Assembly (NCBI GenBank): GCA_038133845.1
Contig: JAYPUA010000014.1
Coordinates: forward strand, 1,471 to 65,470
Length of the DNA: 64,000 nucleotides
Reading direction: 5' to 3'
Origin: Deltaproteobacteria bacterium
Lineage (GTDB): Bacteria; SAR324; NAC60-12
Below the pieces are notes generated by a model. It saw nothing but the letters and a program-made list of their open reading frames with translations. It did no database searches and was not told the origin of the DNA. Position numbers and translations under genes: made by a program. How positions within the stretch are numbered: position 1 is the stretch's first letter; every line of letters starts with the position of its first letter. This document shows positions 18,984 to 42,289 of the stretch, piece after piece.

Positions 18984-18994
18984 CAACAGTCAGT

Positions 18995-22347: not shown

Positions 22348-22361
22348 GGGGGGCTTTGAGG

Positions 22362-23306: not shown

Positions 23307-23367
23307 TTCAGAGGGCTCCTGATTCGTATGACGTGCTGGTTTGGGGGGACTCGGTTGATTTCTACGG

Positions 23368-23477
23368 GATCTGCTCTTCCGGAGGCATTTGGGTATCGTT
23401 CCTCAACCCAGACTACGAGCGGTCTGCTGGGTATCGTTCCTCAACCCAGCCTACGATCTGCTCTTCCGGAGGCATTA
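23368..23477 (-). repeat. Pair of GTAG-family REP-like palindromes flanked by a duplicated 22-bp unit
   Basis: Minus strand GTAG(G/T)CTGGGTTGAGGAACGATACCCA at 23390-23416 and 23426-23454; GATCTGCTCTTCCGGAGGCATT occurs on both sides of the pair. Confidence 0.75.
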
Positions 23478-24950
23478 CTGCCCAGAGGCGTAGTGATCCA
23501 GAGCCTGAAGCACCCCGGCAGAACTCAGGCGAGCCAGCGCTTTGGCAAAGGTCTTCTGGAAAGCCGGAGCTTGTCCCAAATCTCCAAACACCTCCCTTAC
23601 CTCCAGGAACGCCTCCGGGCGCTCTGAGGCTGCGTGGGCAGCAGGAACCAGCCGATCTCCGTTCACATCGTCCACGTCAATTGGTGCCCCGGATTCGCTG
23701 GTCCCTTGCAGGTAGCGACACCAGAGAGCGCTGACCAGCGCGAGCCCGTCCACCGGAAGGCCTTGCCGGATGCGGTCTTGGGTGGAGGGCAGGATGAACT
23801 TGGGCTGACGGTTGGATCCATCCTGGGCCAGGCGCGAGATTGTGTCTGCAATCTCCGGGTTGGAGAAGCGTGACTCGATCTGCCGGAAGTAGTCGGACAG
23901 GTCCGTTTTGGGCACTGGAGGAACAATCGGAATGACCTCCTCTTGCATCATCCGCTGGAGGAATTTCCGGAGGGCGGGGTGCTCCATCGCCTCGTGGGCA
24001 AAGTGCAGGTCGAGCAGTGCCCCCGGGTAGGCAATCGAGGCGTGGCTCCCGTTCAGGATGCGCAGTTTCATCAACTCGAAGGCCGCCACCTGGTTGGTGA
24101 AGGTCACTCCAACTTCCTCCAGCTCCGGACGCCCGAGTGGAAAGTGATCTTCCAGCACCCACTGACGGAACGGCTCACAGAAGACGGGCCAGCGGTCCGT
24201 GATGCCGAACTGCTCTTGCAGCAAGGCCTTCTCCCGGTCTGTGGTGACGGGGGTGATTCGGTCGACCATCCCGTCCGGAAAGGCCACCTCGTCCTCCACC
24301 CAGCGGGCCAACTCCGGATCAACCTGTTGAGCGAGGCCGACCACCGCATTCCGCGTCGCCTTGCCGTTTCCGGTGAGGTTGTCGCAGGAGAGTACCGTGA
24401 ACGGAGCGACCCCGGACTCACGACGGAGTCGTAGCCCTTGTAGCAGGGTGCCGAAGACGCCTTGGGGAGCTTGCGGGTTGCGGGCGTCCGCGACGATCTC
24501 CGGATGATCCGGGTCAAACGTCCCGGTTGCCGAGTTGATGCAGTAGCCGCCTTCGGTGATCGTCAGGGAGACGATTCGGATCCGGGGGTTGGCCAACGCC
24601 TGAATCAAGGCTGCGTTGGTGGGCTCTACCGGAAGAAAATCCAGCATGGACCCGCAGATGCGTGCTCGGCGTGCCCCGGGTTCCAACTCGACAACCGTGG
24701 TCAGCCAGTCCTGTGACTGCAAGGCATCGCGCACCCGGGCATCTCCCGGACGGACCCCAGCCCCAAGAATGCCCCAGTCCAGCGCCTTTCCCTGATTGAA
24801 GAGGTCCTCCAGGTACAGAGCCTGGTGGGCCCGGTGGAAGTTCCCCAAACCAATGTGAATGATCCCTGGAGATTGCTCCTCCCGCCGGTAGCGAGGGGTC
24901 TGCACTTGAGAGAGCGTGGCGAGTTGGTTCCAAGACAGGGACGTGTTCAT
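23475..24950 (-). CDS. mtlK: Mannitol 2-dehydrogenase family protein
   Basis: HIGLGNFHRAHQ, SLTITEGGY, VLSCDN, MVDRITP, MKLRILNGSH; ATG at 24950. Confidence 0.92.
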   Translation of the reverse strand: MNTSLSWNQLATLSQVQTPRYRREEQSPGIIHIGLGNFHRAHQALYLEDLFNQGKALDWGILGAGVRPGDARVRDALQSQDWLTTVVELEPGARRARICGSMLDFLPVEPTNAALIQALANPRIRIVSLTITEGGYCINSATGTFDPDHPEIVADARNPQAPQGVFGTLLQGLRLRRESGVAPFTVLSCDNLTGNGKATRNAVVGLAQQVDPELARWVEDEVAFPDGMVDRITPVTTDREKALLQEQFGITDRWPVFCEPFRQWVLEDHFPLGRPELEEVGVTFTNQVAAFELMKLRILNGSHASIAYPGALLDLHFAHEAMEHPALRKFLQRMMQEEVIPIVPPVPKTDLSDYFRQIESRFSNPEIADTISRLAQDGSNRQPKFILPSTQDRIRQGLPVDGLALVSALWCRYLQGTSESGAPIDVDDVNGDRLVPAAHAASERPEAFLEVREVFGDLGQAPAFQKTFAKALARLSSAGVLQALDHYASGQ

Positions 24951-24951
24951 T

Positions 24952-25671
24952 TCAGGTCTCTTGAAGAGCATGTTGAGTGAGCAGTTGCCGAAGCTCCGGA
25001 ACATCCTGCACCATCCCGGAGATGCCAGACTCTGCCAGCCGTTGGAGGTGCTGAGGGGTCATGTGGCTCCCGCCGGCAAATCCATAGACCGTCATGCCTG
25101 CGTTCAGGCCGGCTTGCACTCCGGTGGGAGAGTCCTCCAAAACCAAGGTGTTTCGAGGCAGAACTCGATATTTTTGGGCAATGTGCAGGTGCAGGTCGGG
25201 AGCCGGCTTGGGACGAAAGGACTCTGTGCTGAACACGTGCGGACGGCATACATCCCACAGTCCGGCGGCCGACAGCGTGGCCCGCAGTCTGGAACAGGAG
25301 CTGTTGGAGGCTACCGCCCAAGGCTGAGGAAGCTCGGTCAGCAACTCCCGCATTCCCGGGATGGCGCGAACCTCTGGGATCAGGTCATCTTCAATCTGCT
25401 GTTCCATCTGGGTCGCCTGCTCCGGAGCCAGCGCGACGTCACACTCCTGGGCGAGCTGGGCCAGGATGACCTGGACCGGTTGCCCCAGTCGCTGGTCCAC
25501 CCAGCGGGAAAAGGCCTGCAGGTCTCGCAGCGGATGATCAGGAGAGCTGTGATCCGTGAGGAACTTGCGGGCTTGGAGGTGGAGGGCCTGCTCGGCGATG
25601 ACTTCGCTGTCCAGCAAAACCCCATCACAGTCGAAGATCACAAATTTTGGCATCTTGGGCAGTTCAGACAA
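24952..25671 (-). CDS. HAD-family phosphatase
   Basis: IFDCDGVLLDSE, VASNS, KPAPD, LEDSPTG. Confidence 0.9.
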   Translation of the reverse strand: MSELPKMPKFVIFDCDGVLLDSEVIAEQALHLQARKFLTDHSSPDHPLRDLQAFSRWVDQRLGQPVQVILAQLAQECDVALAPEQATQMEQQIEDDLIPEVRAIPGMRELLTELPQPWAVASNSSCSRLRATLSAAGLWDVCRPHVFSTESFRPKPAPDLHLHIAQKYRVLPRNTLVLEDSPTGVQAGLNAGMTVYGFAGGSHMTPQHLQRLAESGISGMVQDVPELRQLLTQHALQET

Positions 25672-25673
25672 AA

Positions 25674-26444
25674 TCAGCTCATCCAGTTGCCACCATCGAC
25701 ATTGTAGGTCTGTGCAGTGATGTATCGAGCATCATCGGACGCCAGAAATACAGCAGGATCTGCGATGTCTCGCGGATCGCCCATGCGACCAAGTGGAACT
25801 GACTCCCCGACCAAACGCTTCTTTTCTCCAAGCGGACGGTTTTCGTATTGGGAAAAGAGAGAGTCAACATGATCCCACATGGGAGTGTCGATGACTCCCG
25901 GAGCAATCGCATTGACCCGAATGTTGTGCTTGGCCAACTCCAGCGCCAAGGATTGGGTCACACTGATGATCGCGGCTTTGGTAGCGCAGTAGAGGACGAT
26001 ATAGGGCTCACCTCGACGTCCGGCCTGTGACGAAAAATTGATGATCGCTCCGCCGCCACGCGTGATCATGTGAGGGACTGCCGCCTGGCAGGTGAAGATG
26101 GTTCCGGCCACATTGACATCAAACTGATGGCGATAGCGCTCCTCCGTGATTTCTTCCAGGCGGCACATGTCAAAAATACCGGCATTGTTCACCAGCAAGT
26201 CGATGCCTCCGAAGGCTTCGACAGTCGCGCTGACGGCTTCCTGAATGGAAGTCTGATCGGTGACATCCATACGGGTGCTCCGGGCCTGAGAGCCGAGTTC
26301 CTTGGCCAAGGCCTGAGCCGCATCATCCAGCAAATCCGCAATCATCACCTGGGCACCTTCACGGACGTAGGCTTCTGCAATGCTCCGGCCGATTCCTCTT
26401 GCTGCCCCGGTAATCAGGGCAGACTTGCCTCCTAAACGTTTCAT
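25674..26444 (-). CDS. smoS: Sorbitol (L-iditol) dehydrogenase, SDR family
   Basis: [35 protein letters not shown]. Confidence 0.9.
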
Positions 26445-27445
26445 TGGATTCTATCTCCCTTTGAGTCGAATTTGTGAATCATGTTTGGCCTCGGGGTCAT
26501 GTAGATGGTGTCCCCTTGAGCGAAACCAACCTCACCACTGACGCGGACTGTCACTTGACGCTGTAGGCTGCTGTCTTGAATGTGAAAAAAGGTATCCGAA
26601 CCCAAATGTTCAGAAAGTCCCACCGTTCCTTTCCAGCGACCTTCGTTTTCGGAGACGTCAATGTGCTCCGGCCGAATCCCTATCGTATGGGCACCGTGTT
26701 CGGAAGCTCGCTCTCCTTCAATAAAATTCATTTTGGGAGATCCGATGAATCCGGCAACGAACAAGTTTTTGGGGGCACGATACAGCTCAAGTGGCGATCC
26801 CACCTGTTCGATCACTCCGGCGTTGATCACTACGATCTTATCGGCCATGGTCATGGCTTCGACTTGGTCGTGCGTAACATAAATCATGGTTGTCGCCAAG
26901 CGCTTGTGCAACTCGCTGATTTCTAGGCGCATGCCAACACGCAAAGCGGCATCAAGGTTCGACAGCGGCTCATCAAACAGGAACGCCTTTGGCTCGCGAA
27001 CGATGGCTCGCCCGATGGCAACACGCTGCCGTTGTCCACCAGACAGCTGACTTGGTTTCCGATCAAGGTAGTCAGTAAGGTTGAGTGCTTTCGCTGCCGA
27101 TTCGATCCGCTTGTCTTGTTCTGCCTTCTCCAAGCCAGCCATGCGCAGTGGAAAGGCAATATTCTTGCGAACAGTCATGTGGGGGTAGAGCGCATAGCTC
27201 TGGAACACCATTGCCAACCCTCGCTTGGCAGGAGGAAGGGTTGTGGCATCCTGACCGTCAATGAAGATGGCCCCTTCGGTGACATCCTCCAGCCCGGCAA
27301 TCAATCGCAACAACGTGGATTTCCCACAGCCAGAAGGGCCGACAAAGACGACAAACTCACCATCTTCAATTTGCAGATTCAGCGGTGGGATGACCGTCAA
27401 TTCGTCAAAATTTTTACTGACTTGCTTGAGAGTTATTTGTCCCAT
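26441..27445 (-). CDS. smoK: Polyol ABC transporter ATP-binding protein
   Basis: [25 protein letters not shown]. Confidence 0.93.
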
Positions 27446-27454
27446 GATTTTTCC

Positions 27455-28288
27455 TTACTTCACCGCACCAAAAGTGAGTCCGCGAACAAGTTGTTTTTGA
27501 CTAAACCAGCCCATGATCAGGATTGGGGCGATTGCCATCACTGAGGCCGCACTGAGTTTTGCGTAGAACAATCCTTCAGGGCTGGAATAGCTGGCGATAA
27601 AAGCTGTAAGAGGGGCTGCTTGTGCTGCCGTCAGGTTTAATGTCCAGAATGCCTCATTCCAGGCCAGAATGATGTTCAATAAAACGGTGGAAGCCATTCC
27701 CGGGACCGCCATTGGGGTCAGGACGTAAAGGACCTCACTGCGCAAGGAAGCCCCGTCCATTCGTGCAGCTTCCAAAATTTCATTTGGAATCTCTCGAAAG
27801 TAGGTGTAGAGCATCCAAATGATGATCGGCAAGTTGATCAGCATCAACACAACAGTGAGTCCCAGGCGGCTATCCAGGAGACCAAGGTCGCGGAAAATCA
27901 GGTAAATCGGTACCAACACCCCAACAGGAGGCAGCATTTTTGTGGACAGCATCCACATTAAAACATTCTTTGTCCTTTTGGCAGGAACGAATGCCATCGA
28001 CCAAGCTGCAGGGACGGCGACCAACAAACCAAGAAATGTGGACCCAAGCGAAATGATCACCGAGTTGGAAAAGTGCTTTAGGTAATCAGATCTTGCCTGG
28101 ACGGTGCTGAAGCTTTCCAGGGTCCAGCCGGAACTGAACAAGATTTCCAGTGGGGCCCGGATGGCATCTTCCTCTGTTTTGAAAGACAGGATCAGAATCC
28201 AAAGGATTGGGAAGAAAAGCAGGGAACCGAAAAGCCCGGCTATTATGGTGTTGGTGATCTTGACTGAGCTGGTAACTGCGCGTGCCAT
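27455..28288 (-). CDS. smoG: Polyol ABC transporter permease
   Basis: Hydrophobic helices; EAA loop EAARMDGAS; ends LVRGLTFGAVK. Confidence 0.92.
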   Translation of the reverse strand: MARAVTSSVKITNTIIAGLFGSLLFFPILWILILSFKTEEDAIRAPLEILFSSGWTLESFSTVQARSDYLKHFSNSVIISLGSTFLGLLVAVPAAWSMAFVPAKRTKNVLMWMLSTKMLPPVGVLVPIYLIFRDLGLLDSRLGLTVVLMLINLPIIIWMLYTYFREIPNEILEAARMDGASLRSEVLYVLTPMAVPGMASTVLLNIILAWNEAFWTLNLTAAQAAPLTAFIASYSSPEGLFYAKLSAASVMAIAPILIMGWFSQKQLVRGLTFGAVK

Positions 28289-28298
28289 GAGTTCTCAC

Positions 28299-29171
28299 CT
28301 ATGCGTCGAGATTCTTGCCGATCATCCGCATGAGGAAGATCGCAACGATATTGGCCAAAATGATAGCAATGACACCACCGGCACTTCCCATTCCAACATC
28401 GAACTGTAACAACGAAGACACGTAAATCAGATAGGTAAGATTAGTCGTTGCGGTACCTGGTCCACCGTTTGTGGTGACGAGAATCTCTGCAAAAATCGAG
28501 AGCAGGAAAATGGTCTGAATCAAGATCACGACCGTGATCGCTCGAGATAGGTGCGGAAGCATGATGTGCCAGAATCGGCTCAACCGATTTGCGCCATCCA
28601 TCTCAGCCGCCTCAATCTGTTCCTGATCAAGCGATTGCAGTGCTGTGAAGAGAATCAGTGTGGCAAACGGGAGCCATTGCCAACTGACAATGACGATGAT
28701 TGAGGTGAGTGGGATCTGACCAAAAAAATCAATTGCTTCAAAGCCCAGGCCGGTTGCGATGCGCCCGAAGATTCCGTTCACTGGATTCATGAACATGTTT
28801 TTCCAGACAAGGGCGGAAACGGTAGGCATCACAAAGAAAGGTGCAATGACCATGACCCGAATAATCCCCTGCCCGAACATGGGCCGATCCAGCAACAGAG
28901 CAAGCAGGATTCCTCCGATCACCGTAATCAAGAGGACACCCCCGACCAATAACAAAGTATTGATCATGGCCTCTTCGAAGCTGGGATCAGTGACAAACCA
29001 GTAGTAGTTTTCAGACCCCACAAATGGATTCCCACTTGGCGTGATCAGGTTGTATCTCAGAAACGAGAAATAGACTGTCAGCACAAGCGGTACGATCATC
29101 CAGCCCAGCAAAAGCAGTACGGCCGGTGAAATCATCATCCTCGCGGCGGCGCGGGAAGCTTTGGTTGCCAT
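28299..29171 (-). CDS. smoF: Polyol ABC transporter permease
   Basis: WQWLPFATLI, EAAEMDGAN, TTNGGPG. Confidence 0.92.
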   Translation of the reverse strand: MATKASRAAARMMISPAVLLLLGWMIVPLVLTVYFSFLRYNLITPSGNPFVGSENYYWFVTDPSFEEAMINTLLLVGGVLLITVIGGILLALLLDRPMFGQGIIRVMVIAPFFVMPTVSALVWKNMFMNPVNGIFGRIATGLGFEAIDFFGQIPLTSIIVIVSWQWLPFATLILFTALQSLDQEQIEAAEMDGANRLSRFWHIMLPHLSRAITVVILIQTIFLLSIFAEILVTTNGGPGTATTNLTYLIYVSSLLQFDVGMGSAGGVIAIILANIVAIFLMRMIGKNLDA

Positions 29172-29194
29172 GTGAACAGTTGGGTCGAAATTAT

Positions 29195-29741
29195 CAAGAA
29201 AGCAGGTCGATCTTCAGGGACCGGCTCGCACTCTTTAATCAAATCTTACTGGTGGTAGCCCGCTTTGGTCGTCTCACGAAGGGCAAACTCTTGGCTGTTG
29301 GCCAAATCGGTTTCAACCGGGTTGAGAGCCTGCCAATGCTACAGCGTCTTGTTGCTCTGCGTGGTAGCCGGTTCCTTGGGAATCAGGAAGGCCACAAATT
29401 GTATACTGGTGCCAGGAACTGGGAGCAGGTTCAGCCGAGAAGACAGTGTCTTTGATACTGGCCACAAACGGGGCCGCTTTCAGCAGGCGTGGGGTCTCGT
29501 GAATGGGAGCACAAGCTCCGCTCGGAACCAACCCCTGGCCTTCGGTTTCACCAGCCTGCAAATACTTGCTTGAGACTCTCCATTTCAGGAAGTCTTTACA
29601 ACGTCCGCTTTGGTGGAGCTTGCTGGGAGGACAAGGCCCAAGACCAACCGGCCCCTTTTGCAGTTGCCCGCTTGGGGGCCTGGAAGAAATTGGTCTTGTC
29701 AGCAACTGGAGGAGTTGACTGGACTGCGAACGTCATTCGCG
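29195..29741 (-). pseudogene. Decayed tandem copy of the 3' part of smoE plus its terminator
   Basis: Collinear with 29742-30307 (e.g. FLKW...GETEG...PRLLKAAPF.ASIKD, ALAGSQ) but with frameshifts, deletions and stops. Confidence 0.9.
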
Positions 29742-29742
29742 C

Positions 29743-29774
29743 AAGAAAAACGGGCCGACCCTCAGATCGGCCCG
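29743..29774 (-). terminator. Intrinsic terminator / attenuating hairpin after smoE
   Basis: Minus strand CGGGCCGATCTGAGGGTCGGCCCG followed by TTTTTCTT. Confidence 0.75.
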
Positions 29775-29788
29775 CATTCTTTGAGACC

Positions 29789-31129
29789 TTACTTGTAGTA
29801 ACCCGCCTTGGTCATCTCACGAAGGGCGAACTTTTGGCTGTTGGCCAAAGCAGTTTCAATCGATTGAGAGCCTGCCAATGCAGCAGCTACTTGCTGTCCT
29901 ACGTAGTTGCCGATTCCCTGGAACTCAGGAATGGCGACAAACTGAACACCGGTGTAAGGAACCGGCAACAGGGAGGGATCTGCAGGGTCCACCGAGAAGA
30001 TGGCGTCTTTGATGCTGGCCGCAAACGGTGCCGCTTTCAGCAGACGTGGGTCCTCGTGAATGGAGGCACGAGTTCCACTTGGAACCGCCACCCAGCCTTC
30101 GGTTTCACCCACCATCTGGAAGTACTCTTTCGAGGTCCCCCATTTCAGGAAGTCTTTGGCAACGTCCGCTTTGGTGGAGCTTGCCGGGATCGCCAGGGCC
30201 CAAGACCAGAACCAACCGGTTCCTTTTGCAGTGGCCTGCTTCGGGGCCTGGAAGAAGTCGGTCTTGTCAGCGACAGAGGAGTTGGCTGGGTTGCGAACGT
30301 CATTCGCAGCGGAAGTCGCGTCAATCCAAGTGGCACACTTGCCGTCCTTGAACAGGGCACGGTTTTCATTGTGACCGTTTCCGGTTGCTCCCGGAGGTCC
30401 GTAGTTGGTCATCAGATTCACGTAGTACTCGATTGCAGCGTTCCACTCAGGAGAGTCCAGCTGCGGCTGCCATTTTTCGTCGAACCAGCGAGCACCAAAG
30501 GCATTTGCAAGCGTTCCAACAAAAGCCATGTTCTCTCCCCAGCCAGCCTTACCACGCTGACAGGTGCCGTAGATGCCGTTTTCCGGGTCATGGACCTTGG
30601 AAACCATGTCGGCAAACTCTGTATAGGTGATCTGCTCCTTGGGAATGGAGATCCCCGCCTTTTTGAAGACATCCGTACGGTAATACGTAAAGGATGTTTC
30701 CGAATACAGCGGAACCGCATAAAGGTTGCCGTTTGCCGACAAGCCATTTCTTACGAGCTGAAAGATGTCGTTGACATCATAACCCGCATCATCTCCAAAA
30801 TCATTCAGTGAGGTCAGCCAGCCGTTGGCTCCCCAAATCGGGGTCTCGTAAGCACCAATGAACATGATGTCAAAAGAACCCCCATTGGTTGCGATGTCCT
30901 GAGTCGTTCGCTGACGAAGGACATTTTCCTCAAGCACCACCCAGTTGATCTTGTTGCCTGTAGCCTGCTCCCACTTCGGGGCCAGCTTCTGCATCACGAT
31001 CATGTCGTTGTTATTGACTGTGGCGATAGTGATCTCCTCCGCGGTGACGGTCGTGGAGGCAACTGAAGCCACTGCCAAGCCGGCGACAAGGCCAGCAAAT
31101 GTTTTGGTCAGCTTGGATATGCGACGCAT
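29789..31129 (-). CDS. smoE: Polyol ABC transporter substrate-binding protein
   Basis: Signal peptide; ITIATVNNNDM, WVVLEENVLRQR, RGKAGWGEN, PYTGVQFVAIPEFQ. Confidence 0.93.
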   Translation of the reverse strand: MRRISKLTKTFAGLVAGLAVASVASTTVTAEEITIATVNNNDMIVMQKLAPKWEQATGNKINWVVLEENVLRQRTTQDIATNGGSFDIMFIGAYETPIWGANGWLTSLNDFGDDAGYDVNDIFQLVRNGLSANGNLYAVPLYSETSFTYYRTDVFKKAGISIPKEQITYTEFADMVSKVHDPENGIYGTCQRGKAGWGENMAFVGTLANAFGARWFDEKWQPQLDSPEWNAAIEYYVNLMTNYGPPGATGNGHNENRALFKDGKCATWIDATSAANDVRNPANSSVADKTDFFQAPKQATAKGTGWFWSWALAIPASSTKADVAKDFLKWGTSKEYFQMVGETEGWVAVPSGTRASIHEDPRLLKAAPFAASIKDAIFSVDPADPSLLPVPYTGVQFVAIPEFQGIGNYVGQQVAAALAGSQSIETALANSQKFALREMTKAGYYK

Positions 31130-31477: not shown

Positions 31478-32437
31478 ATGGAGACAACACCGCTGCGCAA
31501 CCCCATAGGCGAACTGGATCTGGAGTGGGTGTCAGGGCTTCGCGTCAACCGCAGCGCCTCGGAGCGTCGAGCCGCAACGCTAGGAACGCGCCGCAGCGTG
31601 AAGAAGCAGTGGCAGGCAGCGTGGCTGCTCAAGGCGATCGCCTGCATGGACCTGACAACCCTTTCCGGCGATGACACCCCGGACCGCGTGAGACGCTTGT
31701 GCGCCAAGGCTCGTCGTCCGCTACGTGAAGACCTGGTCCGGAGCCTGGGGATTGAGTCGCTGAACCTGAAGGTCGGGGCGGTGTGCGTCTATCACGCGTT
31801 TGTGGAGACGGCGGTCCGGGCCTTGGAAGGCTCAGGCGTTCCGGTGGCGGCGGTCTCCACCGGGTTCCCTCATGGACTGAGCCCGCTTCCTGTGAAGCTC
31901 GCAGAGATCCGGGCCTCGGTGGAGGCCGGGGCTCGGGAGATTGACATCGTGATTACGCGCTCACATGTGCTGACCGGTAACTGGCAGGCGCTGCATGACG
32001 AGGTGTCAGCCTACCGAGAAGCTTGTGGAGAGGCGCACCTGAAGACCATTCTGGGCACCGGAGACCTGGGAACCCTCCGGAATGTGGCGCGAGCGAGCGC
32101 GGTCTGTCTGCAGGCCGGAGCAGATTTCATCAAGACCTCCACCGGGAAAGAGTCCGTGAACGCCACCCTCCCGGTGAGCCTGACCATGGTCCGGATGATC
32201 CGCGAACACGAAGAGCGCACCGGCTTCCAAGTTGGCTTCAAGCCGGCAGGAGGCATCCGGACCGCCAAGCAGGCGCTGGAGTGGCTGATTCTGATGAAAG
32301 AGGAGCTGGGCGGTCCCTGGCTCACCCCGGAACTGTTTCGCTTTGGGGCCAGCGGACTGCTGACCGACATCGAGCGCCAGCTGGAACACCACGTTACCGG
32401 ACGCTACGCGGCCGCCCACCGTCAGCCTGCGGCCTGA
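31478..32437 (+). CDS. deoC: Deoxyribose-phosphate aldolase (long type)
   Basis: MDLTTLSGDDT, VSTGFP, EIDIVI, FIKTSTGK, GFKPAGGIR, RFGASGLL. Confidence 0.95.
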   Translation: METTPLRNPIGELDLEWVSGLRVNRSASERRAATLGTRRSVKKQWQAAWLLKAIACMDLTTLSGDDTPDRVRRLCAKARRPLREDLVRSLGIESLNLKVGAVCVYHAFVETAVRALEGSGVPVAAVSTGFPHGLSPLPVKLAEIRASVEAGAREIDIVITRSHVLTGNWQALHDEVSAYREACGEAHLKTILGTGDLGTLRNVARASAVCLQAGADFIKTSTGKESVNATLPVSLTMVRMIREHEERTGFQVGFKPAGGIRTAKQALEWLILMKEELGGPWLTPELFRFGASGLLTDIERQLEHHVTGRYAAAHRQPAA

Positions 32438-32549
32438 AATCAAAAGGAACCTTGGGGACTCTTCCCAATCTTTGGGGAGCGATGCCCCGCTGTTTCGGGG
32501 AGAATGCTTCCCGAAACCCTCAACGTCAACGTTCTGCCAGGAGCACCTC

Positions 32550-32960
32550 ATGAGTTCAACATCCGGGCGATGCCTGTGTGGCGCCGTTACCTTTGAAGTG
32601 ACCGGAGAGCCGGCGATGCAGGGCAACTGCCACTGCCTCGACTGCAAACGTGCCACGGGTGCCGGCTTCGCCACCATTGCCTTCTTCAAGGAGGGGCAGT
32701 TCCAGCTGCTCTCCGGAACCCCAAAGTCCTTTGCGCACACCGCAGATAGCGGAAGCGAGATGAGCAAGTCGTTCTGTCCGGACTGCGGATCCCTGCTCTT
32801 CGGGAGCAACTCCAGCCGGCCCGGCGTGATCTCGGTCTACGCGGGCTCCCTGGAGGCTCCGGAGTGGCTCAAGCCGCAGTTCAACGTCTGGACGGTCCGG
32901 GCGTGGTCTTGCTCCACAATCGATCCAACGCTCAACAACTTTGAGAAGGGGCGTCAGTGA
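32550..32960 (+). CDS. GFA/CENP-V family Zn-binding protein
   Basis: GRCLCGAV, CHCLDCKRATG, FCPDCGS; AGGAG before ATG 32550. Confidence 0.92.
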   Translation: MSSTSGRCLCGAVTFEVTGEPAMQGNCHCLDCKRATGAGFATIAFFKEGQFQLLSGTPKSFAHTADSGSEMSKSFCPDCGSLLFGSNSSRPGVISVYAGSLEAPEWLKPQFNVWTVRAWSCSTIDPTLNNFEKGRQ

Positions 32961-32992: not shown

Positions 32993-33745
32993 GTGAACCC
33001 TGAAGAGGCGCTCCGCCTGCTTGAACAGGTGGCTGCCGGACAGTTGGCTCCACCGGAGGCGCTGGGAAAATTGCGCGCGTTCCAGGTGGAGACGCTGGGG
33101 TTTGCCGAGGTGGATCACCACCGCGAGTTGCGCAAGGGCTTTCCGGAGGTGATCTACTGTGAGGGCAAGACCGAAACGCAGGTTGCGGAGATTCTGGTTT
33201 CGCTGAACAGGGCCAGCCCGCACTCTTCCATTCTGGGAACTCGCGCGACTCCGGAGCAGTACGCCGCAGCAAAACGGCGCCTCCCGGAGGTGGGCTACTG
33301 CGAGGTTTCGCGCTGCCTCTTCCTGGATCGCACCACAGAAGACTCCTTGCTGGGCGATGTGCTGCTGATCAGTGCTGGGACTACGGATCAGCCGGTGCTC
33401 TGGGAAGCCTGGCACACCGCGAGGCTCACGGGCAGCCGAACCGAGGTCATTGAAGACCTCGGGGTGGCCGGACTGCAGCGCATTGTCCAGAGGCATGAGC
33501 GGCTCCTGCAGGCCCGGGTGATCGTGGTTGCTGCCGGAATGGAGGCCGCCCTCCCGACCGTCATCGCGGGGCTGGTCGGCTGCCCGGTGATCGGCATCCC
33601 CACCTCGGTGGGCTACGGGACGGCGTTTGGAGGCGTCACTGCGCTGCTCGGAATGTTGAACAGTTGCGCCTCCAACCTCTGTGCGGTGAACATCAACGCC
33701 GGCTTCCGGGCCGGATTTCTCGCCAGCTTGATCAACAGGCCCTGA
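32993..33745 (+). CDS. larB: Nickel-pincer cofactor biosynthesis protein LarB (NaAD carboxylase/hydrolase)
   Basis: VDHHRELRKGFPEVIYCEGKT, AGTTD, DLGVAG, AGMEAALP, PTSVGYG, LNSCA. Confidence 0.95.
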   Translation: MNPEEALRLLEQVAAGQLAPPEALGKLRAFQVETLGFAEVDHHRELRKGFPEVIYCEGKTETQVAEILVSLNRASPHSSILGTRATPEQYAAAKRRLPEVGYCEVSRCLFLDRTTEDSLLGDVLLISAGTTDQPVLWEAWHTARLTGSRTEVIEDLGVAGLQRIVQRHERLLQARVIVVAAGMEAALPTVIAGLVGCPVIGIPTSVGYGTAFGGVTALLGMLNSCASNLCAVNINAGFRAGFLASLINRP

Positions 33746-34923
33746 TGCACCTCCACGTCCACTGCACCTCCGGAATCAGCGGAGACATGCTCGTTGGCGC
33801 ATTTCTCGACCTCGGCCTGCCCTGGGAACACCTGCAAGCCAGCCTGAACGGCCTGGCGCTGGAGGGCTGGCGCATCCGGCACCAGCAGGTTCGGAAGGGA
33901 GGTCGGGATGCGGTGCAGTTTCAGGTCGAGTGGGAGGAGCAGACCCGGCACCGCCACCTCCGGGACATCCTGGAAATTTTACAGCGTTCAAAGCTTCCGG
34001 AGCCTGTTCAACGGGTCGCCATCGACCTCTTCCGAACCTTGGGAGAGGCCGAAGCGCAGGTGCATCAGGTACCGCTGGAGCAGGTGCACTTTCACGAGGT
34101 GGGCGCGGTGGACACGATTGTGGACATCACGGCCATTGCTGTGGCGCTTGACTACTGGAAGATCCGGAGCGTGACCTCGACCCCTGTGGTGGAAGGTCTC
34201 GGCTCGGTGCGCTACTCCCACGGGACCACCGAGTTGCCGGTTCCGGCAGTACGTGCTCTCCTGGCCGATGCCTCCTGGCACCGGATTCCACTGGATTCGG
34301 AGCTGGTCACTCCCACCGGTGCGGCATTTCTCAACCGCTGGGTGTCTGCCTACACCGAGCTTTCTCCGCTGCTGAAACCTGCAGGGGGCGTGGGCTGCGG
34401 ATCCAAGGACTTTGAGCATCCGAACGTGCTGGAGCTGCAGCTTGGAGACCAGCTGCTGGAGTCGGAAACCCTGCTGCGTCTGGAGACCAACCTGGACGAT
34501 GTGAGCCCTCAGATCCTGGCGAGCTGCCTGAAGCTCGCCTTGCAGGAAGGCGCGCTGGATGCCTGGGCCTCTCCGGTGTGGGGGAAGAAGGGGCGGTTGG
34601 GACAGCAGCTGGTGCTGCTCTGCACCGAGCCGAATCGTGATGCGCTGATCCGCTGGATGATGAAACAGGCGGGCACTTACGGGGTGCGCGTGGTTCCGGT
34701 CTCTCGGTTGAAACTTCTCTCTCAACATGAACACTTTCCGAGCGAGTGGGGCCCGGTCTCGGTCCGGACGGGACAGCTGGGAGACGAACTGCTGCACTGG
34801 AAACCCGAGCATGATGACGTGGAGCGTATCGCCCAGGAGACGGGAGAAAGCATGCTCTGGGTTGAGGCGCGCATCCGGGAGGCCTGGGGAAGCCGCATCC
34901 GGAAGCATGGAAAGGACACATGA
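33745..34923 (+). CDS. larC: Nickel-pincer cofactor nickel insertase LarC
   Basis: SGISGDM, VHFHEVGAVDTIVDI, ELVTPTGAA, LETNLDD, KKGR, KPEHDD; ATG overlaps the larB stop. Confidence 0.93.
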   Translation: MHLHVHCTSGISGDMLVGAFLDLGLPWEHLQASLNGLALEGWRIRHQQVRKGGRDAVQFQVEWEEQTRHRHLRDILEILQRSKLPEPVQRVAIDLFRTLGEAEAQVHQVPLEQVHFHEVGAVDTIVDITAIAVALDYWKIRSVTSTPVVEGLGSVRYSHGTTELPVPAVRALLADASWHRIPLDSELVTPTGAAFLNRWVSAYTELSPLLKPAGGVGCGSKDFEHPNVLELQLGDQLLESETLLRLETNLDDVSPQILASCLKLALQEGALDAWASPVWGKKGRLGQQLVLLCTEPNRDALIRWMMKQAGTYGVRVVPVSRLKLLSQHEHFPSEWGPVSVRTGQLGDELLHWKPEHDDVERIAQETGESMLWVEARIREAWGSRIRKHGKDT

Positions 34924-35807
34924 ACCACACGAACCTCTGGAGCCGGCTGGAGTCTGTCCTGAACGGTCCGTCCCTCCGGGTAGTCGCCTGCAGCGGAGGG
35001 GTGGACAGCTTGTTGCTCGCCACGGTTGCTCATCGGTTGGACGCAGGAAGGACGCAGGTCGCCCACGCAGTCGGGCCTGCAGTCCCGGAGGCAGCAACCC
35101 GCAGGGTGCAGCGCTGGGCGGCTCAGGAGAATTGGGATCTGCAGTTGGTGAATGCCGGAGAGTTTGAGGATCCGCAGTATCTGGCCAACCCGGTGAACCG
35201 CTGCTTCTACTGCAAAAGCCACCTCTACCAGTCCCTTGGTCGAATCCGAGACGTGCTGGATCCCTCCGGAGTCCTGATGAGCGGCACCAACACGGACGAC
35301 CTGCAGGAGTTTCGTCCTGGACTCCAAGCCGCGGAGTTGGCGCAGGTTCGGCATCCCTTTGTGGAGGCGCAGTTCAGCAAGACACAGATCCGCGAGCTGG
35401 CCCGGGAGATGGGCCTGCCTTTTGCGGAGCTGCCGGCCTCTCCATGCCTGGCCAGCCGCCTCTATACTGGAACTCCGGTCTCGGCACCGGTGCTGGAGGT
35501 CATCGACTGGGCCGAGTCGCTGATTCGAGAACGCACCGGGTGGAATGTGGTCCGGTGCCGTGTCCAGCAGGACGTGATGCGCATCGAGGTGGAGGCTCCG
35601 AGCGCGTTTGTGGAGTTCCCCGAACTGCTGGAGGAGGTCGCCGCCCGAGCGCGTCGCTCTCCCGCCATCCGGCACGTCGAGATCGACTCGGAACCCTACC
35701 GCTCCGGGCGGGCCTTTGTCCCACCGAACCCCCTTGAGGCTGAGGCGTCAGGGCACACGCGACTTTCTCGCGCAATGAGAGAGTCTGCAGACTTCAAACC
35801 CGCATGA
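34920..35807 (+). CDS. larE: Nickel-pincer cofactor sulfur transferase LarE
   Basis: PP-loop SGGVDS, NPVNRCFYCK, GTNTDD, RPGLQAA, SPCLASR. Confidence 0.92.
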   Translation: MNHTNLWSRLESVLNGPSLRVVACSGGVDSLLLATVAHRLDAGRTQVAHAVGPAVPEAATRRVQRWAAQENWDLQLVNAGEFEDPQYLANPVNRCFYCKSHLYQSLGRIRDVLDPSGVLMSGTNTDDLQEFRPGLQAAELAQVRHPFVEAQFSKTQIRELAREMGLPFAELPASPCLASRLYTGTPVSAPVLEVIDWAESLIRERTGWNVVRCRVQQDVMRIEVEAPSAFVEFPELLEEVAARARRSPAIRHVEIDSEPYRSGRAFVPPNPLEAEASGHTRLSRAMRESADFKPA

Positions 35808-35819
35808 GGAAACGCAAGC

Positions 35820-36686
35820 ATGACGATTGAAAAGCGAAAGTTTGGCCGAACCGGTCACATGAGTTCAGCCGTTCTCTTTGGAGGTGCGGCCTTGGGAGGA
35901 GTTGACCAGTCCACGGCCGACCAGGTGCTTGACCTGCTCTTTGAGCATGGCATCAACCACATCGACACAGCCGCAAGCTACGGAGATTCGGAGAAGCGGA
36001 TTGGCCCTTGGATGAAGCGCCACCGCAAGCAGTTCTTTCTGGCAACGAAGACGGGCATTCGCGATTACGCCGGCGCCAGGCAGCAGATCCACGAGTCGCT
36101 GGACAAGCTCTGTACCGACCACGTGGACCTGATTCAGTTGCACGCCCTCATTCATCCGGACGAGTGGGAACAGGCTCTCTCGGCAGGTGGAGCGCTGGAG
36201 GCGTGCATCGAAGCCCGAGAGGCCGGGCTGGTCAAGTACATCGGAGTGACGGGTCACGGCTGGAACGTGGCGACCATGCACAAGCGCAGCCTCGGACGGT
36301 TCAACTTCGACTCGGTGCTGATGCCCTGGAACTACTTCGCGGCACAGCATGAAACCTACGGTCCGGACTTTATGGAAACCTGGGAACTCTGCAAGGAGCG
36401 CAACTTGGCGGTGCAGACCATCAAGTCGATTGCCCGGGGGCCTTGGGCGGCAAATGCCGAGAAGAACCGGACCACCTGGTATCAGCCTCTGGAGCAGGAG
36501 AAGGATATCCAGCGTGCGGTCAACTGGCTGCTCTCTTACGACGGGTTGTTTCTCAACTCGGTTGGAGATGTGAACCTCCTGCCCTCCGTGCTCAAGGCGG
36601 CAGACAACCGGGGCAAGCGGCCGTCCAGGAAGCAGATGGAGGACCTGAGTGAGCGCATGGGCTTCTCCAGCATCTTCGGACTCTGA
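35820..36686 (+). CDS. Aldo/keto reductase family protein
   Basis: [33 protein letters not shown]; starts 12 bp after larE. Confidence 0.92.
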
Positions 36687-36695
36687 GGCGCGTCG

Positions 36696-37829
36696 ATGCT
36701 TTGGAACGACCCACACCTCCCGGCCACCAGCGACTCCGGGGTTCTGAGAGCCGGTTGGACGTCTCCGGAAGCGCAAGCCGAGCCCACCGGCGCCTCCGTC
36801 TGGAGTTCTGGCCTGTGCGATCTGCAGATCAATGGATTTGCTGGCGTGGACTACAACCAGCCCACGATGACTCCGGAGGCCTTCGAGCGGTCAATGGAAG
36901 CGATGTTGCGTTCCGGAGTGACGCGGTGCCTCCCCACTGTGATCACCGGCGATGAGGCTTGGCAGTCCGGATGCTTTCGGGCGTTGGAGGCCGGGAGACA
37001 GGCCTCTGCCCTGGGACGGGAGATGGCCGTGGGCTATCACCTGGAAGGGCCATTTCTCAACCCGGAAGAAGGGTTCCGGGGCTGTCATCCGCATCAGGAC
37101 ATGGCCCCCGCACGCTGGGACCACTTCCAGCGCCTGCAAGAGGCGGCTGGAGGAAACATCCGCCTGATTACCGTCGCGCCGGAGATGGAGGGCGTGATGG
37201 AGTTGATCCCGCGTTGGGTCGAGCAGGGAGTCGTTGTGGCGCTCGGACACTGCAACCCGAGCCGAGACCAGGTTCGCCAAGCCGTGGAGGCTGGAGCGAC
37301 ACTTTCCACCCACCTGGGAAATGGAACGGCCTCGCCCCTGCCCAAGTCGGACAATGTCATCCTGCGGCAGCTCGCCGAAGACGGCCTGAGCGCGAGCTTC
37401 ATTGCGGATGGCATTCATGTGCAGCCTCACGTACTGGGCGTCTACTTGCGCGCCAAGCAGTCTCCCCGGACCATTCTGGTCACCGATGGCACTGCCGGTG
37501 CGGCCACGCTCCCCGGACGGTACACACTCGGGCCGGTACCGCTGGAGCGCCAGGAGCAGGACATCGTCTACATCCCGGGGACACAGAGCCTTGCAGGTTC
37601 GGCAGCGACGCTCTCCAGCTGCGTGCGCAACGTGACCCGTTGGTTCAAAACACCTCTTTCCGAAGCCGTTCAGTGGGCCTCGGAGCATCCTCGCCAGCTG
37701 CTGGGGATGAGCGCGACTCCGGAGGTTGGAGCATTGGCTGAAGGGGTGCGGTGGGTGCGTGAAGACTCCGGATGGCAGGTGGCTGAAGTGTTGCTGGGCA
37801 ACCGCCGAGTCTCGGTGCTCGAGTCGTAA
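36696..37829 (+). CDS. NagA-like N-acetyl-aminosugar deacetylase (amidohydrolase)
   Basis: DLQINGF, GYHLEGPFL, TVAPE, ALGH, STHLGNG, IADGIH, LVTD, LAGS. Confidence 0.85.
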   Translation: MLWNDPHLPATSDSGVLRAGWTSPEAQAEPTGASVWSSGLCDLQINGFAGVDYNQPTMTPEAFERSMEAMLRSGVTRCLPTVITGDEAWQSGCFRALEAGRQASALGREMAVGYHLEGPFLNPEEGFRGCHPHQDMAPARWDHFQRLQEAAGGNIRLITVAPEMEGVMELIPRWVEQGVVVALGHCNPSRDQVRQAVEAGATLSTHLGNGTASPLPKSDNVILRQLAEDGLSASFIADGIHVQPHVLGVYLRAKQSPRTILVTDGTAGAATLPGRYTLGPVPLERQEQDIVYIPGTQSLAGSAATLSSCVRNVTRWFKTPLSEAVQWASEHPRQLLGMSATPEVGALAEGVRWVREDSGWQVAEVLLGNRRVSVLES

Positions 37830-39584: not shown

Positions 39585-41420
39585 ATGAAAGGAATGAAGA
39601 GCGAAAATCTGTTGATCATCCTCAGCATCTTGGTCCTGTCCTTGTTCCTGGTGAACATGTTCAACGGATCTTCGATGGGCCCGCGGGTCAATGAGATCAT
39701 CTACAGCGACTTCCGGAGCCAGGTGCTGAGCGGGGAAGTCATCAGCGCTCAAATGATCGGAGACTCGCGTGTCGAAGGGTTCCTCGCGGATGGCAACCCC
39801 TACCGGACCTATGTCCCCCCAGAGCATCCGGGGGTGGTCGAGATGCTTCGAGTGAACGGGGTGCAGTTCAGCTTCATGCCGGAACCTGGACTGCCCTGGT
39901 ATCTGAGCCTGTTCATCCACTGGGGGCCGTTCCTGCTGATCTTTGGTATCTGGATCTTCCTGATGCGCCGTATGCAGGGCGGAGGAGCCGGGAAGATGTT
40001 CTCTCTGGGAAGGAGTCGGGCCAACAAGATTGAGCCGGATCAACTGCAGATCACCTTCGAGAACGTGGCCGGAGTCCAGGAGGCCAAAGAGGAGTTGCAC
40101 GAGACCATCGAGTTTTTGAGAGACCCCGCCAAGTTCCGCAAGCTGGGAGGGCGCATTCCGAAGGGGATGCTGATGTCCGGACCTCCCGGGACCGGAAAGA
40201 CCTTGCTGGCCAAGGCCGTTGCCGGAGAAGCTGGAGTCCCGTTTTTTAGCATGAGCGGCTCCGATTTTGTGGAAATGTTTGTGGGCGTTGGTGCGAGCCG
40301 GGTCCGGGATCTGTTCGAGGAGGCCCGCCGCAACGCACCGTGCATCGTGTTCATTGATGAGATTGACGCCGTGGGCCGGAGCCGGGGGGCTGGGCTGGGG
40401 AGCGGAAACGACGAGCGCGAGCAGACGCTCAACCAACTGCTTGTTGAGATGGACGGGTTCGACGCCACCGAAGGCATCATCGTGATCGCGGCGACGAACC
40501 GCCCAGACGTACTGGACCCCGCCCTGATGCGTCCGGGACGTTTCGACCGGCAGGTGCATGTCCCTCTTCCGGATGTGCGCGGACGTGAGGAAATCCTGAA
40601 GATCCATGCCGCCAAGGTGCAGATGTCTGAAGGGGTGGACCTCTCGGTTGTGGCCAAGGGAACCCCCGGGTTCTCCGGTGCTGACCTGAAGAACCTGGTC
40701 AACGAAGCGGCTCTGGGAGCAGCACGTCACAACAAGACGGCACTGACTCTGGCGGACTTCGAGTGGGCGCGGGACAAGGTCCTGATGGGTCCGGAGCGTC
40801 GGTCGATGGTGATGAGCGACAAGGAGAAACGCACCACGGCCTACCATGAGGCCGGACACGCGCTGGTGTCGTCGCTGTTGCCGAAATCGGACCCGGTGCA
40901 CAAGGTCACCATCGTGCCGCGCGGACGGGCGATGGGCGTGACCTCGTACCTCCCGGAGAACGACAACCGAAGCTATGACCGCGAGTACCTGAGTCACCGC
41001 ATCGCCACGGCGATGGGAGGCCGTGCGGCGGAGGAGGTCATCTTCAACGAGATCACCACCGGCGCGAGCAACGACATCCAGCAGGCGACCGACATGGCCC
41101 GGAACATGGTCATGCGCTGGGGGATGAGCGACTCCCTGGGGCCGATCGTTCTGGGAAGCGATGAAACCCACGACATCTTTGGGCGCGACATGCGGATGGA
41201 TCGCGAGTACAGCGAAGAGACGGCGGTGGAGATCGACGAGGAGGTCCGGCGCCTGGTTCAAGGGCACCACGATCTGGCAGTCAAGCTCCTGAAGGAGAAC
41301 CTGGACGTGCTGCACCGCATCGCAGAAACCCTGCTCGAAGAGGAGATCATCGACGGCTCGCGCATTCTGGCATTTCTGGGAGAACCTTCGGGTTCTCCCG
41401 CCCTGCAACCTGAAAGGTGA
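39585..41420 (+). CDS. ftsH: ATP-dependent zinc metalloprotease FtsH
   Basis: Two TM helices, [26 protein letters not shown]. Confidence 0.98.
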
Positions 41421-42289
41421 TGGGTCCCAAGCCGCTAGCCTTTCACCTCCTCCAGTACCTGCCCCGCAAGCACTTCAGCCGCCTGTGTGGGCAGGTTGCG
41501 GACCTTCCCCTCCCCGGAATCCTGCTCCAGCCCCTGATTCGCACCTTTGCCTGGGCGTTTGGGGTCGACTGGTCGGAAGCCGCTCTTCCTCCGGGAGCCT
41601 ACCGCAATTTCACCGAATTCTTCACCCGGGAACTCAAGCCGGGAATGCGGCCGATTGCTTCGGGCGAGACCACTCTGATCAGTCCGGTGGATGGTACGAT
41701 TGGGCAGTACGGGACCATCCGAGACGGGCGCTTGATTCAGGCCAAGGGGATCGACTATTCGGTGGAGGCGCTCCTGGGTGATCCGGAGCGGGCCCGGCGT
41801 TACGAGGGGGGAGAGTTCTTGACCATCTACCTCGCTCCCCACAACTATCACCGGATTCACAGCATGGTGGATGGCGAGGTGCAGGCGTTCTCCTACATCC
41901 CCGGAGACCTCTGGACGGTCAGCCCCTTGGGGGTAGAGCATGTGGAGGGACTGTTTGCGGTCAACGAGCGGTTGACGTCTTTCATCACGACCTCTGCAGG
42001 AGAATGCGCCCTGGTGAAAGTGGGGGCAACGGTTGTCGGACGTATCAGAGTGCGATATGATGGCCAGATTTCAAATCGCCCTGACGCGACCACGCGTCAT
42101 GCGATTCTGAACCCTGCCTTTCCCATTCGCCGAGGCGAGGAGCTCGGTCAGTTCGAGTTGGGCTCCACCGTGGTGCTGCTGTTTCAGCCTGGTCAGGTGG
42201 AGTGGGGAAATATTCGTGTCGGACAACCGATCCGGTTGGGAGAGGCGCTGGGGAGATTTCACTATCACCGCACGGAAGACAAGCAATGA
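41417..42289 (+). CDS. psd: Phosphatidylserine decarboxylase proenzyme
   Basis: FFTRELK, SPVDG, YLAPHNYHRIH, NER, FELGST cleavage motif. Confidence 0.95.
   Translation: MMGPKPLAFHLLQYLPRKHFSRLCGQVADLPLPGILLQPLIRTFAWAFGVDWSEAALPPGAYRNFTEFFTRELKPGMRPIASGETTLISPVDGTIGQYGTIRDGRLIQAKGIDYSVEALLGDPERARRYEGGEFLTIYLAPHNYHRIHSMVDGEVQAFSYIPGDLWTVSPLGVEHVEGLFAVNERLTSFITTSAGECALVKVGATVVGRIRVRYDGQISNRPDATTRHAILNPAFPIRRGEELGQFELGSTVVLLFQPGQVEWGNIRVGQPIRLGEALGRFHYHRTEDKQ

Follow-up and report, generated by a model that had tools for sequence, protein, structure and literature searches.

The closest solved relative of the enzyme analyzed here is NphT, the nickel-pincer-mononucleotide-dependent hydride transferase of Alicyclobacillus cellulosilyticus, described in June 2026 (Semersky et al., Nat Chem; PMC13524815) in the one paper that our literature search found to tie nickel-pincer enzymes to the aldo-keto reductase (AKR) fold. 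NphT was reported to bind nickel-pincer mononucleotide covalently, with a mass shift of +450 Da, to give no products with NAD(P)(H) in the assays that the article recounts, and to dismutate galactose, arabinose, and ribose to lactone and alditol by action at C1 of the free aldoses, with a kcat/KM of roughly 1-10 M^-1 s^-1 on such promiscuous sugars (PMC13524815). A 1.3-Å structure of NphT (9YEB) has a K200 tether, H144 on the nickel, and a tetrad of D47, Y52, K75, and H106, and the cofactor is further contacted by T142, I199, W218, Y219, and the backbone of A20/A21 and G248 (PMC13524815). Here we compare with NphT an AKR gene that lies in a row with larB, larC, larE, and a gene for a NagA-like amidohydrolase in 64,000 nucleotides of a SAR324 genome (GenBank assembly GCA_038133845.1, contig JAYPUA010000014.1, positions 1,471 to 65,470), a stretch hereafter called the window.

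According to the published account, AKR-fold proteins adjoin larBCE in 427 clusters that have no LarA up to 20 open reading frames (ORFs) away from LarC, the His/Lys cofactor motif is absent from canonical AKRs, and the physiological substrate of NphT is described as not known (PMC13524815). The main text of that paper makes no mention of NagA, a deacetylase, an amidohydrolase, N-acetylglucosamine, or SAR324, and its supplementary 427 clusters and 798 homologs may include the protein or neighborhood studied here (PMC13524815). A second described family, LarA (PF09861), uses the same cofactor and the same logic of a Lys tether and a His on the nickel as NphT, but LarA catalyzes racemization whereas NphT performs intermolecular hydride transfer (PMC13524815). 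LarA differs from the window AKR in having an unrelated fold with no sequence similarity, and the AKR is about 140 residues shorter.

An NphT-like AKR encoded beside larBCE

The row and the gene at its left border are as follows.

32472..32960, + strand: gene for a small zinc protein of the GFA family (PF04828; Pfam GFA 117 bits), left border of the cassette
32993..33745, + strand: larB (NCBIfam NF033503 LarB, 254.2 bits, cut-off 175)
33745..34923, + strand: larC, fused LarC1 and LarC2 (PF01969, 362.6 bits; LarC1 166.5 bits, cut-off 90; LarC2 103.4 bits, cut-off 50)
34920..35807, + strand: larE (TIGR00268, 233.5 bits, cut-off 150)
35820..36686, + strand: NphT-family AKR-fold gene, 288 amino acids (9yeb_A, E 5.4e-71; PF00248, 92.4 bits)
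36696..37829, + strand: NagA-like amidohydrolase gene, 377 amino acids, last of the row (TIGR00221, 183.3 bits, below the cut-off of 225.65)

The AKR of the window aligned with NphT (about 290 amino acids) from end to end, with 242.3 bits over residues 3-287 against 4-289 of PDB 9yeb_A and an identity of about 44% (roughly 125 identities in 287 columns, counted by hand from the alignment). The runner-up AKR in the PDB scored only 58.5 bits, and the match to the general AKR family, PF00248, spans only profile positions 2-201 of 291. The NphT family is further marked by a cofactor cavity too short for the AMP half of NAD(P), to which this partial Pfam match speaks only indirectly. Residue numbers in the window AKR are offset by +2 from those of NphT, and every named NphT residue has a counterpart except A20, which is Gly22. 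Conservation was judged in an alignment of 131 sequences, made up of the window AKR, 120 hits from the database, and 10 translations of loci. The catalytic tetrad (D49, Y54, K77, and H108), the nickel-ligand position (H146, in GVTGHG against GITGHG of NphT), and the cofactor-tether position (K202, aligned to TIKAIARGPW of NphT) were each invariant (131/131), as were the further cofactor-contact positions T144, I201, W220, and Y221. Position 22 was Ala in 74 and Gly in 57 of the sequences, A23 is present in the window AKR, and G249 (NphT G248) was nearly invariant.

Moreover, the subfamily is large and tightly conserved, as the best 120 database hits are 68-100% identical to the window AKR and nearly all are 288 amino acids long. 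In two metagenome-assembled genomes (MAGs) the AKR match is split between two frames (L015:10001-10868, 30+260 residues; L016:10001-10865, 73+217 residues), which reflects either a frameshift or an assembly indel. The AKR tree has two clades; it is unrooted with several long branches and was not used to argue transfer. An AlphaFold2 model predicted an AKR TIM barrel (pLDDT 94.9, pTM 0.92), and all of its Foldseek matches were AKRs at probability 1.00.

The window AKR and NphT are also alike in being encoded beside larB, larC, and larE in a carbohydrate-metabolism neighborhood. They differ in that the window's host belongs to another phylum, with a SAR324 MAG record among the relatives in the AKR family, and in that the window AKR falls in the very strongly conserved subfamily just described, which has recurrent neighbors encoding aldehyde dehydrogenase (ALDH), short-chain dehydrogenase/reductase (SDR), TRAP transporters, and LarA. 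A first-pass annotation, made from the letters of the window, had suggested that the AKR may be a nickel-pincer client and had cautioned that AKR-fold enzymes of this kind might already be on record. The caution was right, given the June 2026 paper, and the suggestion is borne out at the sequence level by the full-length homology to NphT, the presence of all cofactor and catalytic residues, and the presence of LarC in all 14 AKR-encoding genomes among the 61 searched (see below). We conclude that the AKR is very probably a nickel-pincer client.

The gene row supports treating the AKR gene and larBCE together. Gene identities, order, overlaps, and the 12- and 9-nucleotide (nt) spacings given in the first-pass annotation were confirmed by ORF listings and sequence reads, and profile searches scored larB, LarC1 plus LarC2, and LarE above the curated cut-offs of their equivalog models. 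The TGA of larB and the ATG of larC (33745) have one base in common, larC and larE overlap in the sequence ATGA, and a gap of 12 nt, with GAGGAA ahead of the AKR start, separates larE from the AKR gene. An alternative larC start, TTG at 33664, is also open, and the Pfam match begins at residue 30 of the ORF from that start. Both borders of the larB-larC-larE-AKR cassette, GFA/larB on the left and AKR/NagA-like on the right, are bridged by contigs of two other studies (X6 records 21 and 26; X10 records 4 and 5), and thus the arrangement is real and not an assembly chimera.

We consider it about 85% probable that larBCE and the AKR gene constitute a four-gene nickel-pincer module with an NphT-type client, of which the NagA-like gene is no obligate partner. 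In such a module, LarB (nicotinic acid adenine dinucleotide carboxylase/hydrolase, the first step), LarE (ATP-dependent sulfur transferase), and LarC (nickel-inserting cyclometallase) would make nickel-pincer mononucleotide from nicotinic acid adenine dinucleotide. The AKR would hold the cofactor through K202, as a thioamide tether, and H146, as the nickel ligand, and the tetrad D49/Y54/K77/H108 would let hydride pass between carbonyl and alcohol substrates without NAD(P), most likely sugars or sugar-derived aldehydes. The same cofactor supply would also feed a LarA-type 2-hydroxyacid racemase encoded on another contig, C16. The NagA-like gene would probably be co-transcribed with the module in this genome, and its orthologs in relatives would work in the absence of both the AKR and the cofactor pathway.

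The larE protein of the window has a C-x-x-C pair (CFYC) plus the Cys of a PCLASR stretch. Three Cys mark the Fe-S-cluster type of LarE, which is catalytic rather than sacrificial, and the "sacrificial" in the NCBIfam name may not fit this protein.

LarA and the linkage of the AKR to lar genes

The first-pass annotation had described the locus as lacking LarA. Within the 64-kb window the description holds, as tblastn with the genome's own LarA gave a best E value of 0.68. At the level of the genome it fails: a whole-genome profile search of the 3.55-Mb assembly (96.5% complete) gave a sole PF09861 match on contig C16 (16462-17067, 186.5 bits). The absence of LarA is therefore a local statement only, because C16 carries one. 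The C16 ORF, of 427 amino acids, combines a Lar_N and a LarA_C domain. Among solved structures the broad-spectrum lactate racemase 9EID is nearest to it (E 1e-90), and the genes beside it encode a GntR/FCD regulator, a periplasmic binding protein, an ALDH-MaoC fusion, and a glutathione S-transferase. The genome of the window AKR thus has a LarA, whereas the published search for NphT relatives kept only clusters without LarA within 20 ORFs of LarC. We conclude that the cofactor pathway probably serves at least two clients in this genome.

To place the AKR among its relatives, 61 genomes were surveyed, namely this genome (G000) and 60 relatives, whose kinship makes the counts descriptive only. 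The AKR was found in 14 of the genomes, LarC in 42, and a Lar_N match in 28. All 14 genomes with the AKR had both LarC and a Lar_N match, the latter weak in three (E 1e-7 to 1e-11), whereas genomes without the AKR had LarC in 28 of 47 cases and Lar_N in 14 of 47. The order larB-larC-larE-AKR was preserved at 6/6 loci of the sister genus g2, the cassette proteins of which are 59-83% identical to those of the window. Where the contig reaches far enough (L035:4457-6715, L034:13065-15323, L036, and L044), the g2 cassette is preceded by genes for an ALDH (481 amino acids) and an SDR (255 amino acids), the end of the latter overlapping larB. Genes for a DctPQM TRAP transporter follow the cassette at one g2 locus (L035), and TRAP genes flank the AKR gene in genus g4 (L038). 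The co-occurrence of the AKR with larBCE that the first-pass annotation proposed to look for was therefore seen both in the conserved order of g2 and in the presence of LarC in 14/14 AKR genomes.

A second set of loci came from a species-representative collection, in which 16 AKR loci were examined. Clustering of neighborhood ORFs was noisy in GC-rich loci, where antisense ORFs displaced real genes, and leads were rechecked by tblastn or Pfam. Genes of the lar pathway lay within 10 kb of the AKR gene at 7 of the 16 loci. Six alphaproteobacterial MAG loci (L005 to L009 and L016; for example, L008:10001-14820) had the order AKR-LarA-LarC-LarE-LarB, with gaps of 15-18 nt where measured (L008), and the linked LarA proteins are 63-66% identical to the LarA of C16. 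The first-pass annotation had held that a LarA elsewhere in the genome, together with AKR homologs separated from larBCE, would speak against the AKR as a client. A LarA does lie elsewhere, but where the AKR gene is unlinked to lar genes LarC was still present elsewhere in the genome in six of seven cases.

The NagA-like gene and the history of its junction

The NagA-like protein is the genome's best NagA-like match even though it missed the equivalog cut-off of TIGR00221 (183.3 against 225.65 bits), and it aligned to the solved NagA structures 7NUT, 2VHL, and 1YMY over about 310 residues (E 1e-35 to 1e-18). In the alignment with 7NUT and 2VHL, residues E117, H185, H206, and D264 coincide with the motifs HLEGPF, GH, THL, and TD, and these four, along with Q44 and N46, were invariant in the alignment of NagA-like proteins (A1). 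We take the four residues to have metal-ligand or catalytic roles, and the replacement of His-x-His by Gln-x-Asn presumably matches the mononuclear type of Escherichia coli NagA. The window protein thus resembles NagA in an alignable amidohydrolase barrel with the Glu, His, His, and Asp positions kept. It differs in that the motifs THL(F/Y)NAM and HHR(D/E)PG read THLGNGT and LPKSDN, and in that the motifs around the phosphate-binding Arg are altered, with Lys/Arg nearby. Moreover, orthologs of the window gene lie beside genes for Opp-type ABC ATPases and hexuronate enzymes rather than beside nagB/nagE. We conclude from the conserved motifs that the NagA-like protein is probably an active mononuclear amidohydrolase.

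The NagA-like family comprises two paralog classes, and identity to the NagA-like paralog is 54%. The class of the window protein was matched from residue 1-10 onward, at 57-64% identity, in G013, G033, G035, and G021, and was N-terminally truncated in the two congeners, G001 and G002. Five of the six genomes with such an ortholog (G001, G002, G013, G033, and G035) have neither LarC nor the AKR, and in the sixth, G021, the NagA-like, AKR, and LarC genes are each on a contig of their own. The ortholog has a sugar-acid setting in G013, G033, and G021, where it follows genes for two Opp-type ABC ATPases and is followed either by genes for an enolase-superfamily dehydratase, a 2-keto-3-deoxy-6-phosphogluconate-type aldolase, and a PfkB kinase or by genes for a glucuronate isomerase and a reductase of the mannitol-dehydrogenase family.

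The congeners bear on how the cassette came to adjoin the NagA-like gene. Genome searches of G001 and G002 (96-97% complete) found AKR, LarC, and LarA all absent, and in both congeners the GFA ortholog (73% identity) directly abuts the NagA-like ortholog (L058:6098-7554 in G001; L059:594-2038 in G002). At the G001 junction the TGA of the GFA gene overlaps the GTG start of the NagA-like gene by 4 nt (GTGA). Ahead of the DLQ(V/I)NG motif the NagA-like gene has about 11 codons in the congeners against 41 in the window, and the extra 30 or so N-terminal residues of the window protein align with the orthologs from three other genera (G013, G033, G035, and G021; A1). The LarA locus was also compared with the two congeners and gave no clean picture of insertion or deletion, as only the ALDH-MaoC and glutathione S-transferase genes have counterparts, on other contigs.

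The shared N-terminus makes it fairly likely that the adjacency of cassette and NagA-like gene is ancestral in the genus and that the congeners shed the cassette together with some 30 NagA-like codons. On this view one deletion in their lineage would have begun immediately beyond the GFA stop, taken out larB-larC-larE-AKR, and ended near codon 30 of the NagA-like gene, and LarA would also have been lost. Alternatively, the cassette could have been inserted recently into an existing GFA/NagA-like pair, with no deletion in the congeners and with the NagA-like gene an accident of the landing site. That history would account for two nearly complete congener genomes in which GFA abuts the NagA-like gene and AKR, LarC, and LarA are nowhere to be found, and around the locus the genomes are otherwise not syntenic. 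We nonetheless favor deletion, because insertion into the congener arrangement could not recreate the ancestral NagA-like N-terminus that the window shares with three other genera. Insertion would also need two gains, of the cassette and of LarA, and on top of these a small independent deletion in the congeners. The 59-83% identity of the cassette proteins to those of g2 is not below the 54% of the NagA-like paralog, which fits vertical descent. We regard insertion as somewhat unlikely.

Whichever way the junction arose, the first-pass annotation had read it as a sign of an amino-sugar pathway, in which the NagA-like enzyme would free an amino sugar (or its phosphate) and the nickel-pincer AKR would dismutate or epimerize it, all from a five-gene operon. 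The genes are close: only 9 nt separate the AKR gene from the NagA-like ATG, a Shine-Dalgarno-like GAGG precedes that ATG, and the scan found no terminator-like site on the + strand in the spacer. One RNA-library contig (X15 record 13) joins the AKR gene, the spacer, and the first 22 nt of the NagA-like gene, a weak indication as DNA carry-over is possible. RNA-library contigs (X15 and X17) cover parts of every gene, and the libraries may contain DNA and allow no transcript boundaries to be read, nor do gaps in the coverage carry any weight. Scans of the locus gave 1 promoter-like site against 0.8 expected in shuffled sequence and 4 terminator-like sites against 5.0 expected, and because neither is an excess they add nothing to what the short gaps say about the extent of the operon. 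In this genome the NagA-like and AKR genes are probably co-transcribed. The amino-sugar pathway would further draw on the common N-terminus, which suggests that the adjacency is older than the split from the congeners, and on the action of NphT at C1 of aldoses in free form (PMC13524815), a position that an amino sugar would present once deacetylated.

The wider distribution of the genes argues against that pathway. There are 27 distinct other AKR loci (16 plus 13, minus two identical contigs), 22 of which extend 1.2 kb or more past the downstream end of the AKR gene, and a search of the fetched flanks gave no NagA-like hit at any of the 22. The genes that do recur near the AKR encode ALDH, SDR, TRAP transporters, and LarA and not amidohydrolases, and the NagA-like orthologs persist in the five genomes without LarC or AKR and occupy Opp-ABC/hexuronate clusters in other genera. 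Because the NagA-like gene survived the loss of the whole nickel-pincer system in the congeners, it appears independent of that system. The claim that the NagA-like pairing points to an amino-sugar pathway therefore has little comparative support, given the 0/22 count and the orthologs in five relatives that lack LarC and AKR, and we consider the five-gene operon distinctly improbable. We conclude from these comparisons that the AKR and the NagA-like gene probably do not form a dedicated pair, and the position of the latter in this one genome is the only tie between it and the nickel-pincer enzyme.

Another alternative makes the AKR a conventional NAD(P)H-dependent reductase and leaves the LarA of C16 as the sole client of larBCE. 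It could point to that LarA as a classic client and to the above-threshold PF00248 match, but it is highly improbable given that the His/Lys motif absent from canonical AKRs is present and invariant in the subfamily, that NphT, by far the closest solved relative, gave no products with NAD(P)(H), that the Pfam match breaks off at profile position 201, and that LarC accompanies the AKR in all 14 genomes.

Several points weigh against the four-gene module with an NphT-type client, or against setting the NagA-like gene apart from it. Related genomes are not independent, and the co-occurrence counts therefore overstate the support that they give. One genome with the AKR (G063; locus L012, AKR at 66% identity), of a completeness that is not known, had no LarC or LarE above the cut-off. 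The best Foldseek template-modeling scores, 0.67-0.77, belong to ordinary AKRs, in a structure library of releases up to 2026-04-08, which precedes 9YEB. Cofactor use by the AKR is inferred from homology and conserved residues, and the hydride-transfer chemistry and co-transcription are likewise inferences. Given the 9-nt spacing with GAGG, expression of the NagA-like gene probably accompanies that of the AKR gene in this genome, and the adjacency, if ancestral in the genus, leaves room for a local functional link.

AKR-LarA pairs, a polyol operon, and surrounding genes

The tight AKR-LarA rows of the alphaproteobacteria suggest a speculative connection between the two clients. The NphT subfamily and a particular LarA subfamily might act in series, with the AKR dismutating an aldose or aldehyde to alditol and aldonate, the latter a 2-hydroxyacid, and LarA then epimerizing the aldonate at C2. 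The six alphaproteobacterial loci with AKR-LarA-LarC-LarE-LarB and the Lar_N matches in all 14 AKR-bearing relatives speak in its favor, and we rate the idea as unlikely. A link between AKR and LarA may have gone unseen because the published search discarded clusters containing LarA.

The window itself encodes a possible outlet for the alditol. A sugar-alcohol operon runs divergently from the row that includes deoC, the GFA gene, and the lar genes:

21073-31129, - strand: nine-gene sugar-alcohol operon
31478-32437: deoC-type aldolase gene, upstream of the GFA gene

The operon encodes a CUT1-type sugar ABC transporter consisting of a solute-binding protein (29789-31129), two permeases, and a MalK-like ATPase. 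Its other products are a HAD hydrolase, an enzyme of the mannitol-dehydrogenase family, a GatZ/KbaZ-like protein, and two that exceed their family cut-offs, namely an SDR matching L-iditol 2-dehydrogenase (393.5 bits against 338) and a tagatose kinase (434 bits against 420). We take the operon to resemble the polyol and galactitol/altritol-to-tagatose routes of alphaproteobacteria. As speculation, an operon for polyol uptake and tagatose phosphorylation could consume the alditol half of the AKR dismutation. Against such a link, at least the genes for the solute-binding protein and the adjacent permease (28000-31043 searched) have counterparts on contig C19 of G001, a genome without the AKR.

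Taken with the published work, the locus gives the NphT family a further member, verified by sequence, whose lineage is uncultured and marine or estuarine, and it shows how widespread and how unusually conserved this subfamily is. No new enzyme class is opened here, as that of NphT has been published. What is mildly new is the module-like behavior of larBCE-AKR, four genes that can be lost whole and together with LarA, the apparent deletion scar in the congeners, and the tight AKR-LarA pairing of the alphaproteobacteria, which the design of the published pipeline filtered out. The neighbors ALDH, SDR, TRAP, and LarA are better leads to the physiological substrate of NphT than is the NagA-like gene.

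The GFA gene that borders the cassette on the left probably has its true start about 25 codons downstream of the TTG. At the right, a convergent gene for a MATE transporter ends 28 nt past the stop codon of the NagA-like gene. Genes for rpoB (10590-14822, - strand), dnaX (17088-18986, - strand), ftsH (39585-41420, + strand), and phosphatidylserine decarboxylase (41417-42289, + strand) lie on either side, and because such housekeeping genes surround the region, the locus is chromosomal and no obvious mobile island.

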